A stretch of DNA of 64,000 nucleotides, taken from NCBI GenBank assembly GCA_022340545.1, contig JAJDNV010000090.1, forward strand, positions 801 through 64,800, written 5' to 3'. The DNA is from Acidobacteriota bacterium. Lineage in GTDB: Bacteria > Acidobacteriota > Vicinamibacteria > Fen-336. The position numbers were made by a program, and so were the translations under genes. Below are positions 635 through 7,675 of this stretch, piece after piece. Each line of letters starts with the position of its first letter. Positions within the stretch are counted from its first letter, which is position 1. The notes under the pieces are model-generated. The model did no database searches. It had not been told where the DNA came from and saw only the letters and a list, made by a program, of their open reading frames with translations.

Positions 635-2299
635 CTAGCTCGACGCGCGGGCGGGGCGAGGAGGGGTGCGCAGGGCCACGCGGGCCTCGAAGGAGACCGC
701 GACCGCCAGCACGATCAGGATCGCGCACAGGCCGGCCAGGAACCAGTCAGGCCCCTCGCGACCGACCCCGGTGACCGCGCCGTGGACCTGCCACACGAGG
801 GCGCCGATGGTCGTCACGAGCATCACGAGGGCGGGGACGAGAGTGACGCGGCGCGCCTTCCCACGATCCACGAGCCAGCAGGAGACGACCAGCAGGGCCA
901 GCGCGGCCACGAGCTGGTTCGAGGCGCCGAAGGCGGGCCAGAGGACGCGCCACTGGTCGGACAGGGCCAGGGCCCCCGCCGCCACCACGACGATGATCGC
1001 CGGGGCCCACCGGCTCTCCCAGCCGGTGAGCTCGGCCAGGAGGTAGCGGCCGAGCCGGGTGGCGGTGTCGAGGGTGGTGAGGATGAAGAAGTTCAACGCC
1101 ATCAGGGCGAAGGTTGTCCCATAGCCCCCGAGCATCGAGCCGGTGAGCGAGCCGTATCCCTCGCCGAAGGCGGCGATGGCCCCCCCGGGTGCGCGCAGGA
1201 GCTCGGCGTGGCGGGCCGCGCTCAGCCCCGCCCCCACCGCGATCACCACCAGCGTCGCCACCGTCGACTCCATGATCATCGCGCCATAGCCAATGCGGCA
1301 GGCGTGGGCCTCGTTGTCGAGCTGCTTGCAGGTGGTGCCCGAAGACACGACCGAGTGGAACCCCGAGATCGCGCCGCACGCGATGGTTACGAACATGAGC
1401 GGCCACAGGGGACCCGCCAGCGGCCACTCCGCGGGCTGGAATCCGTGAAACGGCGCCGCCTGGAAGGCGGGCCCGGACACGAGAATGCCGACGAGACCGA
1501 GGCCGATCGTGGTGAAGAGCACGTAGGAGGACAGGTAGTCGCGGGGCTGGAGCAGGTACTGGACGGGAAGGACGGAGGCCACCAGGCAGTAGACGAGAAG
1601 CGCGAGGGCCCAGAATGTCTGTGGGGCGAGGCCCGCGACGTGCGGCACCGGCGGCGGGAAGGCGTGGCCGAGGGCGAGCAGGGCCACGATCGCACCCAGG
1701 CCTCCGATCGTGACCAGGGCGAGGCGCCCGCCGCCCGAGCGACCGCGGTAGAGGGCCACCCCGGCGAGGGCCGCGACGGGCAGGATGCCCCAGCTCGGCA
1801 CCACGATCTCCGGGGCCTGGACGAATGTACCCGCGGTGAGCACGGTGAAGACGGCCAGAACCAGGACGAGCGCGATCAGGATGAAGACGGAGAACAGCGT
1901 CCGAGCCCGCCGAGTGACCACACGACCCGAGACCTCGGCGATCGAGACGCCACCGTGCCGCACCGCGACCACGAGGGACGAGAAGTCGGCCACCGCACCC
2001 ATCAGCACGCCACCGAGGACGATCCACACGATGGACGGCGCCCAGCCCCAGTAGGCGACGGCGAGCGCCGGGCCCACGATCGGGCCCGCCGCACAGATCG
2101 ACGAGAAGTGGTGCCCGAAGAGGACCAGCCACTGCCGCGCCGGGACGTAGTCGACGCCGTCGTACTTCGTGTGAGCGGGAGTCGGCCGCGACGGGTCGAT
2201 GCCCAGCAGACGGGCGACGAGCCGGCCGTAGACCAGGTATCCCACCCCGAGGAGCGCGATCACGACGAGAAGGAGCGCCCGTGCGTCCATGTCCCTCAC
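635..2299 (-). CDS. cstA: Carbon starvation protein A family transporter (CstA/BtsT-like peptide or pyruvate transporter)
   Basis: 554 aa polytopic protein with the CstA signature FGHHFSSICAAGPIVGPALAVAYWGW and family-typical length. GAGGTGA sits 7 nt upstream of the ATG at 2299. Confidence 0.9.
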   Translation of the reverse strand: MRDMDARALLLVVIALLGVGYLVYGRLVARLLGIDPSRPTPAHTKYDGVDYVPARQWLVLFGHHFSSICAAGPIVGPALAVAYWGWAPSIVWIVLGGVLMGAVADFSSLVVAVRHGGVSIAEVSGRVVTRRARTLFSVFILIALVLVLAVFTVLTAGTFVQAPEIVVPSWGILPVAALAGVALYRGRSGGGRLALVTIGGLGAIVALLALGHAFPPPVPHVAGLAPQTFWALALLVYCLVASVLPVQYLLQPRDYLSSYVLFTTIGLGLVGILVSGPAFQAAPFHGFQPAEWPLAGPLWPLMFVTIACGAISGFHSVVSSGTTCKQLDNEAHACRIGYGAMIMESTVATLVVIAVGAGLSAARHAELLRAPGGAIAAFGEGYGSLTGSMLGGYGTTFALMALNFFILTTLDTATRLGRYLLAELTGWESRWAPAIIVVVAAGALALSDQWRVLWPAFGASNQLVAALALLVVSCWLVDRGKARRVTLVPALVMLVTTIGALVWQVHGAVTGVGREGPDWFLAGLCAILIVLAVAVSFEARVALRTPPRPARASS

Positions 2300-2427: not shown

Positions 2428-2802
2428 TCAGCGATCGACGGTCTCCACCGGGCCTGAGCCCGGCGGGGCCTCACAGGGGACCTGCTGCCAGCCGGTGCGG
2501 ATCGTCGTTGCACCGCAGTAGTTCCGGCCCTGCGAGCGCGGGTCGTTCAGATAGGCGAGGATCGTGGCGCAGGTCTCGCTCTCCTCCGGACTCACCCGGC
2601 ACACCCCGCTGAAGGAGCGGTTGGTGAAGCAGCAGTCATCGCGCGGAGACGGCTCCTGCGGTGCCGCCGCGACGCCGACGCAGGCTTTCGGGTGAGCGAC
2701 GTCGGGCGCGGGTCCGGCCATCAGCGCCACCGCCGACCCGCCGACGAGGAGCGCGGCGAGACATGCCATCACAGATCTGAGCTCGGTGTGTCCTGTTCTC
2801 AC
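2428..2802 (-). CDS. Small secreted cysteine-rich hypothetical protein (8 Cys in the mature part)
   Basis: In-frame GTG at 2802 follows GGAGGAGG by 8 nt (an alternative ATG lies at 2769). Signal-peptide-like MACLAALLVGGSAVALMAGPA precedes a Cys-rich ~90 aa region (CVGV...DDCCF...GVCRV...ETCAT...NYCG...VPCE). It lies immediately downstream of the GRE gene. Confidence 0.45.
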   Translation of the reverse strand: MRTGHTELRSVMACLAALLVGGSAVALMAGPAPDVAHPKACVGVAAAPQEPSPRDDCCFTNRSFSGVCRVSPEESETCATILAYLNDPRSQGRNYCGATTIRTGWQQVPCEAPPGSGPVETVDR

Positions 2803-2836: not shown

Positions 2837-5254
2837 CTACGCCAGGGAAGGCTTTGCCGCGACGACGGGCGCGGCGAGGGGGGTTGAGCCCGAGAGCCCG
2901 TCGTGCTCGGTGCGGGCGATGATCTCATCCTGGAGGGCCACTGAGAGGTCGCAGAAGTAGTCGCTGTAGCCGGCCACACGCACGATCAGGTCGCGGTGCT
3001 CCTCGGGCCGCGCCTGCGCCTCGCGCAGCGTCTCTGCCCGCACCACGTTGAACTGCACGTGATGCCCGTCCATCTTGAAGTACCCCCGCACGAGGTGGGC
3101 CAGGGCGTCGATGCCGGCATCGCCGTCGAGGAGAGAGGGGGCGAACTTCATGTTCAGCAGGGTGCCGCCCGTGCGGAGGTGGTCCATCTTCGCCGCCGAT
3201 CGGAGGACAGCGGTCGGTCCGCGACGGTCGGCCCCCTGCACCGGTGAGATGCCCTCGGACACTGGCCGCGTCGCTCGACGTCCGTCCGGCGTCGCCCCGG
3301 TCACCGAGCCGAAGTAGACGTGACAGGTCGTGGGCAGCATCTGGATGCGGTACCGTCCCCCGCGGGCGCTCGGGCGGCCGTCCACCGAGGAGAAGAAAGC
3401 CTCGAAGGCGCGCTGCATCAGGGCGTCGGCGCGGTCGTCATCGTTGCCGTACTTCGGCATGCGGTTGACGAGCCGCAGGCGCAGGGGCTCGTGTCCGTCG
3501 AAATCGCCGTCCAGCGCCGACACGAGCTCCTCGAGAGACACGCGCCCCTCCTCGAACACCGCGCCACGGATGGCGGCGAAGCTGTCGGTCAGCGTCCCGA
3601 TACCCACCCCCTGGATGTAGGTATTGTTGTACCGGGCGCCGCCGGCGTTGTAGTCACGGCCGCTGCGGATGCAGTCGTCGATCAGGACCGAGAGGAATGG
3701 CGCGGGCATGAGCCGCGCGTACATCCTCTGGATCACCTGGTTGCCGGCGATCTTGACGTCGAGAACGTGCCTCATCTGTGTCTCGAAGGCGCCGAAGACG
3801 GCATCGAAGTTCTTGAGGGTCCCCGGCTCGCCGGTGGCCGGGCCGAGCCGACGCCCCGAGCGCGGATCGAGTCCGTTGTGCAGGGCCAGCTCCAGCACCT
3901 TCGGCAGGTTGAAGTAGCCGGTGAGGATGTAGGCCTCCTTGCCGAAGGCCCCGACCTCCACGCAGCCCGAGCAACCGCCGGCCCGGGCGTCCTCGAGCGT
4001 CTTGCCCTGGCGTAGCTGTTCCGCGACGACGGCATCGGCGTTGAACAGCGACGGGAATCCGTAGCCCTTCCGGACGACCCTCAGGGCGTGCTTCAGGAGC
4101 GCGTCCGGCGTCTTGCCCGAGACCTGGACGTTCGAGGATGGCTGGAGGAGGTGCATCTCGTCGATGATCTCGAGGAGGAGATGCGAGACCTCGTTCGAGC
4201 CGTCGGTGCCGTCCGTCCGGAGCCCGCCGAGGTTGATGTTGGCGAAGTCGGTGTAGGTGCCGCTCTCGGCGGCGGTGACCCCCACCTTCGGCGGCGCCGG
4301 GTGGTTGTTGAACTTGATGAAGAAGCACTCGAGGATCTCCTTCGCCCGCTCCCGCGTGAGCGTCCCTTCCATCAGGCCACGCTCGTAGAACGGGAGCAGG
4401 TGCTGGTCGAGGCGTCCCGGGTTGAAGGCGTCCCAGCCGTTGAGCTCGGTGATGACGGCGAGGTGGCAGAACCAGTACGACTGGAGCGCCTCCTGGAGAT
4501 CGCGGGGGGCCTGAGCGGGCACCCGGCGGCACACGGAGGCGATCGTCTTGAGCTCGGAGCGTCGAGCGGGCTCGGGCTCGGCTTCGGCCAGGGCCTCGGC
4601 CCGCTCGGCGTGGCGCGCCGCGAAGAGCAGAACCGCGTCGCACGCGATGTCCATGGCCCGGAGCTGTTCACGTCTGTCCCAGGCCTCCCCATCGTGGAGA
4701 GGGTCCAGCGCCTCGACGGCGGCGGCGATGTCGGCCTTGAAGTCCAGTAGCCCCCGCCGGTAGATCTTGTCGTCGAGGACGGTGTGGCCCGGGGCCCGCT
4801 GCTCCATGAACTCGGTGAAGAGCCCGGCCTCGTAGCACGTGTGCCATTCCGGTGGCAGGGCCTCGAAGATCCGGTCGCGCAGCGACCGGCCTCGCCAGTA
4901 GGGGATGACGTCCCGCTCGTAGGCCAGGATCACATCGGGGTCGACCCGGTAGCTCGTCTTCTCGCGGGAGTTCAGGATGCGAAGGTCCTCGACGCTGTGG
5001 CAGGTGAGCTCCGGGAAGGTGGGGACGGCCTTGGGCGCCGGCCCCCGCTCGCCGACGATCAGCTCGCCCTCGCCCACGTGGATTCGCCTGTTCTCGCAGA
5101 GGTGCAGAAACGCGCGGGCCCGCATGACGGGCACAGAGAGGCGCCCGTCGTGGTCGCGGTAGAAGCGCGTCAACAGGAGCGCGCGCTCGGCGGAGATCGA
5201 TGGCGGGGTGTCGAGGCTCAGCCGGCGCAGGGCTTCGGTTCGGGGGGTCATCAT
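2837..5254 (-). CDS. Glycyl radical enzyme, PFL2 / glycerol-dehydratase-like (eliminase) family; substrate unknown
   Basis: 805 aa from ATG at 5254-5252 (MMTPRTEALRRL...). The C-terminal glycyl radical motif is RVAGYSDYFCDL. Active-site loop GGCSGCVEVG has the Cys-x-Glu arrangement of PFL2-type eliminases. The track's 1065-aa ORF has a low-complexity N-terminal 260 aa that overlaps the activase gene and is rejected. Confidence 0.9.
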   Translation of the reverse strand: MMTPRTEALRRLSLDTPPSISAERALLLTRFYRDHDGRLSVPVMRARAFLHLCENRRIHVGEGELIVGERGPAPKAVPTFPELTCHSVEDLRILNSREKTSYRVDPDVILAYERDVIPYWRGRSLRDRIFEALPPEWHTCYEAGLFTEFMEQRAPGHTVLDDKIYRRGLLDFKADIAAAVEALDPLHDGEAWDRREQLRAMDIACDAVLLFAARHAERAEALAEAEPEPARRSELKTIASVCRRVPAQAPRDLQEALQSYWFCHLAVITELNGWDAFNPGRLDQHLLPFYERGLMEGTLTRERAKEILECFFIKFNNHPAPPKVGVTAAESGTYTDFANINLGGLRTDGTDGSNEVSHLLLEIIDEMHLLQPSSNVQVSGKTPDALLKHALRVVRKGYGFPSLFNADAVVAEQLRQGKTLEDARAGGCSGCVEVGAFGKEAYILTGYFNLPKVLELALHNGLDPRSGRRLGPATGEPGTLKNFDAVFGAFETQMRHVLDVKIAGNQVIQRMYARLMPAPFLSVLIDDCIRSGRDYNAGGARYNNTYIQGVGIGTLTDSFAAIRGAVFEEGRVSLEELVSALDGDFDGHEPLRLRLVNRMPKYGNDDDRADALMQRAFEAFFSSVDGRPSARGGRYRIQMLPTTCHVYFGSVTGATPDGRRATRPVSEGISPVQGADRRGPTAVLRSAAKMDHLRTGGTLLNMKFAPSLLDGDAGIDALAHLVRGYFKMDGHHVQFNVVRAETLREAQARPEEHRDLIVRVAGYSDYFCDLSVALQDEIIARTEHDGLSGSTPLAAPVVAAKPSLA

Positions 5255-6147
5255 CAGGCTCCAAGCGAGACCTGGAGGCCCCGCTCGCGAAACACGACCG
5301 CGAGGGCCTCCATCCGTTCGGGGGAGGGCGGGGCGAGGGACTGGAGCGAAGACGGCCGGCCGAGTCGGCGGGCCTTGTCCACGCCGGTCCGGTGGTACGG
5401 CAGCAGGCTCACCCGGCGCACGCCGCTCAGCCCGGCAACGATCTCCGCCAGCGCGGCGAGGTCGGCTTCGCCGTCGGTGTGGCCGGGGATGATCGGGACG
5501 CGGATCCAGAGCGAGCGGTGGGCACGGCTGAGCGCCTGCAGGTTTTCGAGGATTGGCTCCGTGGGGAGGCCGGTGAACTCGCGGTGTCGGGCGTCGTCGG
5601 CGAGCTTCAGGTCGAAGAGGAAGAGGTCCACGAGCGGGACGAGGCCGAGAATCTCCTCGCGCGGTCCGAAGCCGCACGTGTCCACCGCGGTGTGGAGGTC
5701 GTGGCCCCGCGCGGCCTCGAGGAGGGCCCGGAGGAACCGAAGCTGGGCCAGAGGCTCGCCGCCGGAGAAGGTGACGCCGCCCCCCGATTCCTGGAAGAAG
5801 ACGCGGTCGCGCAGGACCTCGGCCATCACCTCGTCCACGGTCGTCTCGCGGCCGACCATCTCCCGGGCCCCGGCCGGGCACGCCTCGATGCAGGCGCCGC
5901 AGGCCGTGCACACGCCGGAGCCGGGGTCGGGGGCCCCGTGCGGGCACACCTCCTGGCACGTGCCGCACTCGATGCAGCGGCTGTCCACCCTCACGACCTC
6001 GGGCCCGAACGACTGGCTCTCCGGGTTGTGGCACCAGAGACAGCGGGCCGGGCAGCCCTTGAGGAAGACGGTGGTGCGGATGCCGGGGCCGTCATGCAAC
6101 GAGTAGCGCTGCACGTTGAAGACGCGCCCGCTCGTCAGCCCGCTCAT
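5254..6147 (-). CDS. Glycyl radical enzyme activating enzyme (radical SAM, PflA/CutD-like)
   Basis: 297 aa with a CPARCLWCHNP radical-SAM CX3CX2C cluster near the N-terminus, plus ferredoxin-like CIECGTCQEVCP and CTACGACIEACP inserts typical of GRE activases. Its stop TGA (5256-5254) overlaps the GRE ATG (TGATGATGA). Confidence 0.9.
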   Translation of the reverse strand: MSGLTSGRVFNVQRYSLHDGPGIRTTVFLKGCPARCLWCHNPESQSFGPEVVRVDSRCIECGTCQEVCPHGAPDPGSGVCTACGACIEACPAGAREMVGRETTVDEVMAEVLRDRVFFQESGGGVTFSGGEPLAQLRFLRALLEAARGHDLHTAVDTCGFGPREEILGLVPLVDLFLFDLKLADDARHREFTGLPTEPILENLQALSRAHRSLWIRVPIIPGHTDGEADLAALAEIVAGLSGVRRVSLLPYHRTGVDKARRLGRPSSLQSLAPPSPERMEALAVVFRERGLQVSLGA

Positions 6148-6833
6148 GGCGAGGCCTCGACCGCCTCTCCGAAGTAGTAGCGGTGGATGAAGGGCTCCTG
6201 GACGCCGAAGGACCAGTGCACGTCGCGAAGGTGATCGGCAGCGGCCCGCGCGTCGCCCCTCGCCACGAGCCGTACCAGAGCGGCGTGCTCCTCCAGAGAG
6301 GCAAGCTCCCAGTCCTTCACGAGCCCCTGGCGCCGGGGCCAGTCGTAGAGTCTTTGCTTCTGGATGCGCACGATCCGCACGAGGAGCTCGTTCTCGCAGC
6401 GGTCGAGGAACACGTCGTGGAAGGCGAGGTTCCGGTCGTAGTACAGGTCGAAGTCGTCGGCGAGCACGGCGCTCTTCATCTCCGCGTTCAGGCCGTTGAG
6501 GGTTCGTATCTCCGCCTCGCCAAGCTTCGGGAAGGCGGCGAGGACGGCCGTCCCCTCGAGGGCCCCGATCAGCTCGTAGAGATGGCGGATGTCCTCGAGG
6601 GTCAGTGGCCGCACCCGGACTCCCCGCCGGGGAAGGATCGCGACGAAGCCCTCCGCCTCGAGCTGGAGGAGGGCGTCCCGGAGCGGGGTGCGGCTCACGC
6701 CGAGTCGAGAGGCCAGCTCGTCCTGGTTGATGAACGACCCGGGTTGGATCTCACCGTGGGTCATGAGCAGGCGCAGGTGGTCGTAAACCTGCTCCCGGAG
6801 TGACTTGAGGACGAGCGGACCCGACGTGCCCAC
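6144..6833 (-). CDS. GntR family transcriptional regulator, FadR/FCD subfamily
   Basis: 229 aa with an N-terminal winged HTH (QDELASRLGVSRTPLRDALLQLEAEGFV) and a C-terminal FCD-like helical domain. GTG start at 6833. Its 3' end overlaps the activase start by 4 nt. Confidence 0.85.
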   Translation of the reverse strand: MGTSGPLVLKSLREQVYDHLRLLMTHGEIQPGSFINQDELASRLGVSRTPLRDALLQLEAEGFVAILPRRGVRVRPLTLEDIRHLYELIGALEGTAVLAAFPKLGEAEIRTLNGLNAEMKSAVLADDFDLYYDRNLAFHDVFLDRCENELLVRIVRIQKQRLYDWPRRQGLVKDWELASLEEHAALVRLVARGDARAAADHLRDVHWSFGVQEPFIHRYYFGEAVEASP

Positions 6834-6851
6834 GATGGCCTTCCGTGGACT

Positions 6852-6863
6852 CTGATATATCAG
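6852..6863. promoter_or_regulatory. Perfect 12-bp AT-rich palindrome CTGATATATCAG, 19 bp upstream of the gntR start; candidate GntR-type operator or promoter element
   Basis: Seen directly: ...ggactCTGATATATCAGatttcag... in an otherwise ~70% GC context. GntR/FadR-type operators are typically short AT-centred palindromes. Confidence 0.4.
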
Positions 6864-6937
6864 ATTTCAGATGCCCCCGCCAGCCTCGTGGGCGCTGGGA
6901 TGGACTTCGATGAGCCCCCGGCGGTCCCGCCGCCGGC

Positions 6938-7675
6938 CTAGCTGAGCCAGTCGATCAGACCCCGGACCGCGGAGAGGATCTCGACGTCGTGGCTCGCCGG
7001 CCGGGTGCCGGGCGCGGCGGAGAGCCTCCCCGTCATCAATCGGGCGTCAAGCTCGGCCTGGCGCAGCCGTTCCCGCTCATCCTGGAGGTCCGCCTTCTCC
7101 CGGGCCCGCGCCCGGTCCATCCCGCCCGCCCGGATGAACTCGACGATCCGCCGCAGCTCGCCCTGGTTGAGCCAGACGCCGTGCCCCTTGCAGACGTCGA
7201 CGAGAACACCCGACACCCGGGCGAAGTTGTGCCGGTTCATCAGACGCCGGCACTCGGGGCAGGGCCAGTAGCGCTGGGGCCCGGCCGGCGCGGGCGGGGC
7301 CTGGGGCCGGGACAGCGTCGCCTCCAGGACGACGGTCTGCTGCTCGGTCTCCTCGCAGATGCGGTGAAATGAGGTTGTGTCCACCCAGAGGCCGCCGCAG
7401 CGCGTGCACTCGTCGAGGGTGACCGAGCCCACCTTCGCGGGCTCGAGAGGACGCTTGCACTCCGGACAGGGGCGGGACGGACGGGACTCGGCCTCCTCGC
7501 GCACCGCCTTCGCCCCGCAGTGGGCGCAAAAACGAGTGCCCCGGAACAGCTTGGCGAAGCATGACGGGCAGGCCACGAGGGCGAGCAGGGTGCCGCAGTA
7601 TGGGCAGGCCGTCGCATCTGGCGTGGCCGGAGCTCCGCACGAGGGGCAACGGACGGTCCCCGCAGTCTTCGGCAT
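6938..7675 (-). CDS. Zinc-ribbon protein with two zf-TFIIB-like CxxC...CxxC modules
   Basis: 245 aa containing CPSCGAP...CPYCG, CPSC...CAHCG, CPECKRP...CTRCGGLWVD and CPECRRL...CKGHGVWLNQGEL. A C-terminal charged, coiled-coil-like segment follows. Confidence 0.6.
   Translation of the reverse strand: MPKTAGTVRCPSCGAPATPDATACPYCGTLLALVACPSCFAKLFRGTRFCAHCGAKAVREEAESRPSRPCPECKRPLEPAKVGSVTLDECTRCGGLWVDTTSFHRICEETEQQTVVLEATLSRPQAPPAPAGPQRYWPCPECRRLMNRHNFARVSGVLVDVCKGHGVWLNQGELRRIVEFIRAGGMDRARAREKADLQDERERLRQAELDARLMTGRLSAAPGTRPASHDVEILSAVRGLIDWLS

Follow-up and report, generated by a model that had tools for sequence, protein, structure and literature searches.

A stretch of 64,000 nucleotides from the genome of an Acidobacteriota bacterium (assembly GCA_022340545.1, contig JAJDNV010000090.1, positions 801 to 64,800), in the following called the window, contains a 12-bp perfect palindrome, CTGATATATCAG (CTGATA|TATCAG), at positions 6852 to 6863, just upstream of a gene for a regulator of the GntR family. 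This palindrome is probably the operator core of the adjacent FCD-domain GntR protein, and the operon gntR-activase-hypD, which starts behind it and encodes the anaerobic dehydration of trans-4-hydroxy-L-proline, would thus be autoregulated. The original prediction had proposed such an autoregulatory operator controlling a glycyl radical enzyme (GRE) operon. The computational results speak for this proposal, because the site forms a footprint across phyla and tracks the regulator. The features on which the argument depends are the following.

6852 to 6863, core palindrome, the two central half-sites CTGATA|TATCAG, invariant in 18 aligned ortholog regions.
6864 to 6870, minus strand, third half-site CTGAAAT, a direct repeat of CTGATAT in a 7-bp phase to the core.
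6845 to 6870, 26-bp frame of four half-sites, 32.6 bits with the position weight matrix (PWM), three good half-sites in the window.
6839 to 6844, minus strand, GGAAGG, similar to a Shine-Dalgarno (SD) sequence, 5 nt before the gntR GTG, from the sequence.
6144 to 6833, minus strand, gntR, GntR regulator of the FadR subfamily, 229 amino acids, GTG start, winged helix-turn-helix (wHTH) plus FCD domain, predicted to bind the operator.
5254 to 6147, minus strand, radical-SAM enzyme activating a GRE, its ATG overlapping the gntR stop codon (ATGA).
2837 to 5251, minus strand, hypD, trans-4-hydroxy-L-proline dehydratase, a GRE of 804 amino acids, starting 2 nt after the stop codon of the activase gene.

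The evidence comes from the comparison of orthologous loci. The GntR protein was searched against one genome per species and against metagenomes of the Joint Genome Institute (JGI), which yielded about 120 loci with 38 to 100% identity, designated here by L numbers. At 58 non-redundant loci, the activase gene comes immediately after gntR, and the gene for HypD comes next wherever the contig continues. The exact 12-mer is located directly upstream of gntR in all close relatives; in L006 to L010, it is found 4 to 45 nt before this gene. A k-mer count without a prior motif ranked ATATATCAG, ATATCAGAT, and GAAATCTGA first, and ATATATCAG was present in 43 of the 107 non-redundant upstream regions and absent from all coding controls. 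A MAFFT alignment (“A1”) of 18 upstream regions, taken from orthologs with 66 to 100% protein identity, had a mean column identity of 43%, and all 14 invariant columns were located in a single block, GAAATCTGATATATCAG. Judged by these comparisons of sequences, the palindrome is a classical phylogenetic footprint.

A symmetrised PWM of 26 bp was refined on the upstream regions, and a site was scored if it reached at least 12 bits within 200 nt upstream of gntR. Such a site was present in 56 of the 58 gntR-activase loci compared to 6 of the 43 loci in which no activase gene adjoins gntR (Fisher p = 7e-19, which overstates the independence of the counts since the sequences are phylogenetically related). 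Three of these six loci, L009, L135, and L109, do carry genes for the activase and HypD. Both negative gntR-activase loci, L028 and L148, have recognisable variants of the site, which in the case of L028 is a 1-nt insertion. Loci with the motif in front of gntR-activase(-hypD) exist in the Acidobacteriota, Gemmatimonadota, Aminicenantes, Synergistota, and other phyla.

Evaluation of the palindrome itself needs to consider the composition of the window. The expectation of a 12-bp perfect palindrome upstream of the gntR GTG, rich in AT within DNA of about 70% GC content, was confirmed, with a GC content of the window of 70.3% and a spacer to the GTG that was counted as 18 nt. On the plus strand, the sequence around and including the palindrome reads ggactCTGATATATCAGatttcagatg. 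One additional matching base on each side extends it to a perfect 14-mer, TCTGATATATCAGA, at 6851 to 6864, 71% of which is AT, and the most AT-rich 20-mer of the window (15/20, at 6853) falls within the site. Read on the coding strand, the sequence continues behind the palindrome with AGTCCAC-GGAAGG-CCATC-GTG. All of this is part of an intergenic region of 104 bp, 6834 to 6937, because the open reading frames (ORFs) for a Zn-ribbon protein (7675..6938) and for the GntR protein (6833..6144), both on the minus strand, delimit it. There are 41 perfect palindromes of at least 12 bp in the window, and 40 were expected from first-order Markov simulations. Palindromy alone was consequently rejected as evidence, and the AT richness and the conservation carry the weight instead. 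The palindrome upstream of gntR is the only one of them with an AT content of at least 60%, with 0.115 expected per window and a maximum of 2 in 200 simulations. No further match to the 14-mer was found in the window even if 3 mismatches were allowed; one or more such matches turned up in 20 of 100 shuffles. By itself, the palindrome reaches no more than mild significance, with p around 0.1, and it gains its significance because it is conserved in the orthologous upstream regions.

The conserved element is larger than the palindrome. It is composed of three to four half-sites in a 7-bp phase, [CTGAnAT][CTGATA|TATCAG][ATnTCAG], which form an array of 19 to 26 bp, and the PWM consensus CTGAAATCTGATATATCAGATTTCAG accordingly reads CTGAAAT-CTGATA|TATCAG-ATTTCAG with four half-sites around the dyad. 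In the window, the site on the coding strand is CTGAAAT-CTGATA-TATCAG, 6852 to 6870, and the gene-proximal fourth half-site (AGTCCAC) is degenerate. A second related element beside the palindrome had been suspected, and the adjoining cagatttcag indeed turned out to be the conserved third half-site, the G, A, A, and T of which (CTGAAAT) are invariant in the 18 orthologs of alignment A1. Most sites have three half-sites. All four are present in L009, L093, and L100 with CTGACATCTGATATATCAGATGTCAG, in L016 with CTAATATCTGATATATTAGATATCAG, and in L017 with CTGATATCTGATATATCATATATCTG. The third half-site is the gene-distal one (CTGAAAT) in the Acidobacteriota clade to which the window belongs and the gene-proximal one (…TATTAGATATCAG) in the clade with 50 to 60% identity.

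In the sequences scanned, the motif is rare and was found with a particular clade of regulators. The motif scans covered the 64-kb window and about 3 to 4 kb on either side of each ortholog. With 32.6 bits, the operator site was the sole PWM match in the window, the maximum in 10 shuffled windows being 8.8 bits, and neither second sites nor regulon members were found elsewhere in the window. No site of at least 12 bits existed around the distant paralogs in the 39 loci L047 to L085, about 330 kb in total. The motif was also found with orthologs of the regulator that are located beside other genes. Where Synergistaceae orthologs do not adjoin hypD, AAGATATGTGATGTATTAGATATCTT is found about 2.5 kb downstream of their gntR and precedes a gene similar to serine dehydratase genes. 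The deltaproteobacterial orthologs L035, L037, L038, and L164 carry sites of the CTGATGTATCAGATATCAG type, and the neighbours in the annotated loci L035 and L038 are genes for a thiamine pyrophosphate (TPP) enzyme, a class-III aminotransferase, and an aldehyde dehydrogenase. In L034, gntR is 3 kb away from the activase gene, and the motif is 35 nt upstream of the latter. The positions of motifs beside non-hypD genes are 3894-3919 and 4830-4855 in L035, 558-583 in L038, and 6566-6591 in L015; more loci with the motif and an orthologous regulator beside other genes are L018 to L021, L024, L026, L129, L132, L133, L144, and L145.

The recognition helix and wing of the regulator, S(K/R)TPLRDAL.QLEAEGFV...PRRG, are nearly invariant across the motif-linked orthologs and differ in the distant paralogs. 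Orthologs with a PRRK or PRRM wing (L011, L120, L121, L124, L134, and L138, 55 to 58% identity) are without the CTGATATATCAG motif, and three of them, L011, L134, and L138, show palindromes similar to GTCTAGAC or GTCAAATTGAC instead. A changed wing together with different palindromes is consistent with a co-evolution of protein and site, and a switch in DNA specificity may be coupled to the wing substitution. The motif-sharing clade appears to use one DNA code, probably with different effectors.

That a GntR gene heads the GRE operon was correctly predicted. The protein possesses an N-terminal GntR wHTH (PF00392, E = 4.7e-16, residues 13 to 74) and a C-terminal FCD effector domain (PF07729, E = 1.4e-17, residues 85 to 204), so that it belongs to the FadR subfamily of the GntR regulators. 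The solved structures nearest to it, 3sxy and 3fms, both carry the deposition title “Transcriptional regulator, GntR family.” The protein passed the cutoff of no NCBIfam equivalog, its best one being phnR_burk with 104 bits compared to a cutoff of 271, and the best matches in public genomes were metagenome-assembled genomes (MAGs) of Acidobacteriota/Vicinamibacteria; the source is not an actinobacterium. The activase scored 339 bits with TIGR02494 (cutoff 174) and 324 bits with the HypD-activase equivalog, which is below the cutoff of 425. The GRE is HypD, with 1227 bits for the NCBIfam equivalog NF043068 (cutoff 1100) and with the HypD structure 6vxc as best match in the PDB (1024 bits). The three genes form a translationally coupled operon with gntR as the first gene, and the hydroxyproline catabolic gene under its predicted control represents the anaerobic glycyl-radical route and not the hypE/hypO route of the known HypR regulons. 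The ORF of 1065 amino acids that was mechanically obtained for the GRE (2837 to 6034, minus strand) is the HypD frame extended upstream, and its first 261 codons overlap the activase gene out of frame; gene calls on identical metagenome contigs support the shorter HypD of 804 amino acids with its start at 5251.

How the site may relate to the promoter of the operon can be derived from the orthologs. In the window, two promoter-like elements are putatively positioned as follows.

6854 to 6862, minus strand, putative extended −10 site TG-a-TATATC, embedded in the palindrome.
6877 to 6882, minus strand, weak putative −35-like site TGGCGG, 17 bp upstream of TATATC, aligned with TTGCCG/TTCCCA of the relatives.

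For the Acidobacteriota clade, TG-a-TATATC is the sequence of the core, and a −35-like CTTGCC is conserved 17 bp upstream of it; the −35-like consensus in alignment A1 is GGGGCTTGCC, in which T reaches 90% or more. Sigma-70-like promoters can be recognised in genomes richer in AT, where the motif always occupies the position of a repressor. It immediately follows TTGACA-17-TAGACT in L029 and is inside the spacer of TTGCAA-16-TACAAT in L025. In L016, it coincides with TG-a-TATATT, preceded by TTGATA-17, which the sigma-70 scan called as a TG-extended −10 site. In at least seven orthologs (L091, L094, L096, L097, L102, L103, and L104), gntR has no other in-frame start codon than a GTG located 4 nt behind the palindrome; a TGA within the palindrome closes the reading frame upstream of it. 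A ribosome-binding site would not fit into these 4 nt. The gntR mRNA of these orthologs is therefore probably leaderless or nearly so, and a leaderless start would place the transcription start site (TSS) 7 nt after TATATC and the −10 site inside the operator. The gntR of the window differs from these orthologs by its 18-nt spacer with an SD sequence. The same arrangement, a GTG 4 nt after TATCAG, was also seen in L095, L098, and L101. A −10-like element had been offered as an alternative to the operator. The element gains support from the TG-a-TATATC core and the leaderless orthologs, although not as a rival, because the operator and the −10-like element are most likely both true, the one overlapping the other.

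A mechanism can be proposed on this basis, in which we infer that the GntR protein binds and that it represses instead of activating, together with the positions of promoter and TSS, the stoichiometry, and the identity of the effector. A dimer of the GntR protein would bind to the central CTGATA|TATCAG, and the flanking half-sites would recruit a second dimer or extend the contacts. The regulator bound at the extended −10-like TGaTATATC would exclude RNA polymerase, so that the operon is repressed. Binding of an effector to the FCD domain would then release the regulator, and hypD would be induced. By analogy with the HypR regulators, this effector may most likely be hydroxyproline or a close metabolite.

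The arrangement is conceptually a standard local pair of a FadR-subfamily autorepressor and its operator, and as such fairly ordinary; the architecture of the protein and the placement of the site agree with such pairs. Several observations weigh against the assignment as an autorepressor and its operator. The canonical boxes of the subfamily are TKGT/ACMA with a GT-N2-3-AC spacing (Suvorova et al. 2015, PMC4494728), and these were not found. CTGATA|TATCAG does not fit a GT/AC box and was classified as non-canonical, as are the sites of NanR and BioR. Since the core is without GT/AC pairs and there is no resemblance of motifs, the assignment to the GntR protein rests on co-occurrence. The counts for this co-occurrence overstate the independent support because many of the 56 positive loci are related, and they stem from scans with the limited extent given above. 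The overlap with the promoter is weakest in the window sequence itself, where it derives from the orthologs only. A sigma-70 consensus scan called no promoter in the window; the TG and the A at −11 are present in TATATC and its extension, but there is a C instead of a T at −7, and only two of six −35 positions match. Finally, hydroxyproline as the inducer follows from the content of the operon only, and orthologs with other operons suggest that the effector varies.

Some of the same facts could be explained in other ways. The palindrome might be only a promoter element, an extended −10 site or AT-rich melting region that RNA polymerase reads and the GntR protein does not. The conserved −35-like CTTGCC 17 bp upstream of TG-a-TATATC in the Acidobacteriota clade would agree with this explanation, as would the orthologs with their sole GTG 4 nt after the palindrome, which imply a −10 site inside it, and the TG-extended −10 site called in L016. 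We nevertheless consider it improbable. The dyad is conserved also at positions irrelevant for a −10 site, the 3' CAG and the 5' GAAAT, and additional half-sites occur in the 7-bp phase. In the Synergistota, the motif is downstream of, or between, separate and good −35/−10 hexamers. A generic promoter element should recur, whereas this one occurs once in 64 kb, in a version with no T at −7 that was missed by the sigma-70 scan, and the motif accompanies the GntR orthologs to unrelated operons. An operator of a different transcription factor, for instance, a global anaerobic or amino-acid regulator, with a coincidental adjacency of the gntR gene, is similarly improbable. Such a factor would account for a motif that does not look like the canonical FadR-subfamily GT/AC boxes, and the binding of the GntR protein is itself a prediction. 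It would not account for the fact that the motif accompanies this GntR clade in five phyla or more and at three kinds of target operon, its absence around the distant GntR paralogs, or the different palindromes of those clade members that have the PRRK or PRRM wing and lack the motif; moreover, a global regulator should have more than one site in 64 kb.

An element acting at the RNA level, such as a hairpin in the 5' untranslated region, an attenuator, or a terminator of the upstream gene, or else a mobile or repeat element, may be regarded as highly improbable. The intergenic RNA of the window folds better than its shuffled versions (z = −4.2), and an inverted repeat that brackets the palindrome pairs with the SD and start region, which would fit such an element. 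This long inverted repeat (6828 to 6839 and around 6884 to 6894) pairs GCCCACGAGGC with GCCATCGTGGGC and covers the region before the start codon and the GTG. The bracketing pairing is not conserved across 25 orthologs, which had a mean z of −0.6 and heterogeneous structures. The palindrome alone would form an AU-rich stem of just 4 to 5 bp, and in the leaderless orthologs it would not be transcribed from the operon promoter at all. With a permissive E-value, a search of 800 nt against Rfam left the palindrome without a match and gave one sub-threshold match at 7196 to 7262. An RNA element was rejected on these grounds. The terminator scan called no site, and a terminator of the upstream gene was dismissed as well, the only GC hairpin nearby being separate from the palindrome. 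There are no other copies in the window, which speaks against a mobile or repeat element. The remaining explanation keeps the operator of the GntR protein and assumes that the regulator is an activator or has a dual function, or that its signal is not hydroxyproline but pyrroline-5-carboxylate (P5C) or proline, a hydroxyproline (Hyp)-containing peptide, or a metal ion. This is unlikely, yet more credible than the explanations above. FadR itself represses or activates depending on the position of the site, Zn2+ abolishes the DNA binding of Streptomyces coelicolor HypR (PMC6608401), and non-hypD operons are under the control of orthologs that share the motif, which means that the ligand specificity varies within the clade. 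The site, however, overlaps or directly follows the −10 site wherever a promoter is recognisable, which is the position of a repressor, and hypD, the activase gene, and the gene for a CstA-like transporter downstream point to the metabolism of hydroxyproline or Hyp-peptides. The palindrome as the core of an autorepressor operator remains the preferred explanation.

Further features are located on both sides of this operator and its operon.

6938 to 7675, minus strand, Zn-ribbon protein of 245 amino acids, upstream neighbour of gntR.
6918 to 6936, minus strand, GC hairpin CCGGCGG-cggga-CCGCCGG, immediately behind the Zn-ribbon stop codon, with no T-tract and separate from the operator.

The GC hairpin may be a factor-independent transcript end of the high-GC type, or nothing. 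Downstream of hypD and on the same strand is a gene of the CstA family (carbon starvation or peptide-pyruvate transporter; 635 to 2299, minus strand), the product of which could import hydroxyproline or Hyp-peptides; no operator-like site was found ahead of it. Between hypD and the CstA-like gene, a small Cys-rich ORF (around 2428 to 2800, minus strand) encodes a product with an N terminus similar to a signal peptide, MACLAALLVGGSAVALMAG...CCFTNRSFSGVCRV. This product had no match in Pfam or NCBIfam and is 63% conserved downstream of hypD in L006.

To understand the biological meaning of the site, the role of the enzyme has to be considered. Few glycyl radical enzymes are as abundant in anaerobic microbiomes as HypD. 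The literature searched contained no account of how its transcription is controlled, nor a paper that links a GntR regulator or CTGATATATCAG to the glycyl-radical HypD; the exact 12-mer appeared there only within a polymerase chain reaction (PCR) primer of an unrelated paper. The conserved pair of regulator and operator provides a testable model of how environmental anaerobes (Acidobacteriota, Synergistota, and others) may switch on the fermentation of hydroxyproline or of amino acids derived from collagen. The 26-bp PWM can be used to find further members of the regulon in MAGs, the regulator and its site are a candidate part for a hydroxyproline-responsive biosensor, and the motif with its multiple half-sites in a 7-bp phase and without GT/AC is an atypical addition to the catalogue of DNA recognition in the FadR subfamily. 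A broader explanation is possible but less likely than not. The clade, with members in the Acidobacteriota, Gemmatimonadota, Aminicenantes, Synergistota, and Deltaproteobacteria, might share a non-canonical operator grammar of CTGATA-type half-sites in a 7-bp phase with no GT/AC, which would mean that these proteins bind DNA in a way unusual for the FadR subfamily, for instance, as two interdigitated dimers or as a tetramer. The regulator from the window might then be the first dedicated transcriptional sensor of the glycyl-radical (anaerobic) hydroxyproline pathway, and its relatives might re-use the same code with other effectors.

Among the known systems, the hypD (pflD)-pflE-proC locus of Clostridioides difficile and gut Clostridia contains the same pair of enzymes, HypD and its activase. 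To our knowledge, no GntR regulator and no such palindrome have been described for these loci. As to the enzyme-independent side of the comparison, the likeness to FadR, PdhR, and LldR of Escherichia coli and to GntR of Bacillus subtilis consists of the wHTH plus FCD architecture and of a short palindromic site rich in A/T within the promoter region of the regulator gene itself. FadR-subfamily regulators bind to A/T-rich palindromes and are commonly autoregulated (PMC4494728). Further similarities to these autoregulatory operators are the local catabolic operon and the repressor-type position; the core in the window differs from them by the missing GT/AC dinucleotides and by the extra half-sites in the 7-bp phase.

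The HypR regulators are also autoregulated repressors of hydroxyproline catabolism that belong to the GntR family and FadR subfamily, which is a functional analogy and not an established orthology. HypR of S. coelicolor (SCO6294) is a FadR-subfamily autorepressor with a site that covers the −10 region of its own promoter (PMC6608401), and HypR of Sinorhizobium meliloti is induced by 4-hydroxy-L-proline according to White et al. 2012, as cited in PMC5343134. These regulators control the aerobic epimerase/oxidase pathway, whereas the operon of the window encodes the glycyl-radical HypD, and the S. coelicolor HypR motif CTNTGC(A/C)ATGTCAC is unrelated to CTGATATATCAG. With respect to the architecture of the site, the operator of SdhR (TCTTATGTCTTATATAAGACATAAGA, HutC subfamily, PMC4494728) has the same layout of four half-sites in a 7-bp phase around a central dyad, and NanR, a member of the FadR subfamily with TGGTATAW direct repeats (PMC4494728), shows that proteins of this subfamily can use tandem half-sites. 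The sequences of the half-sites differ from those of SdhR and NanR, as does the effector-domain subfamily in the case of SdhR, and many of the sites described here have three of the four half-sites, with the extra one on either side of the core.

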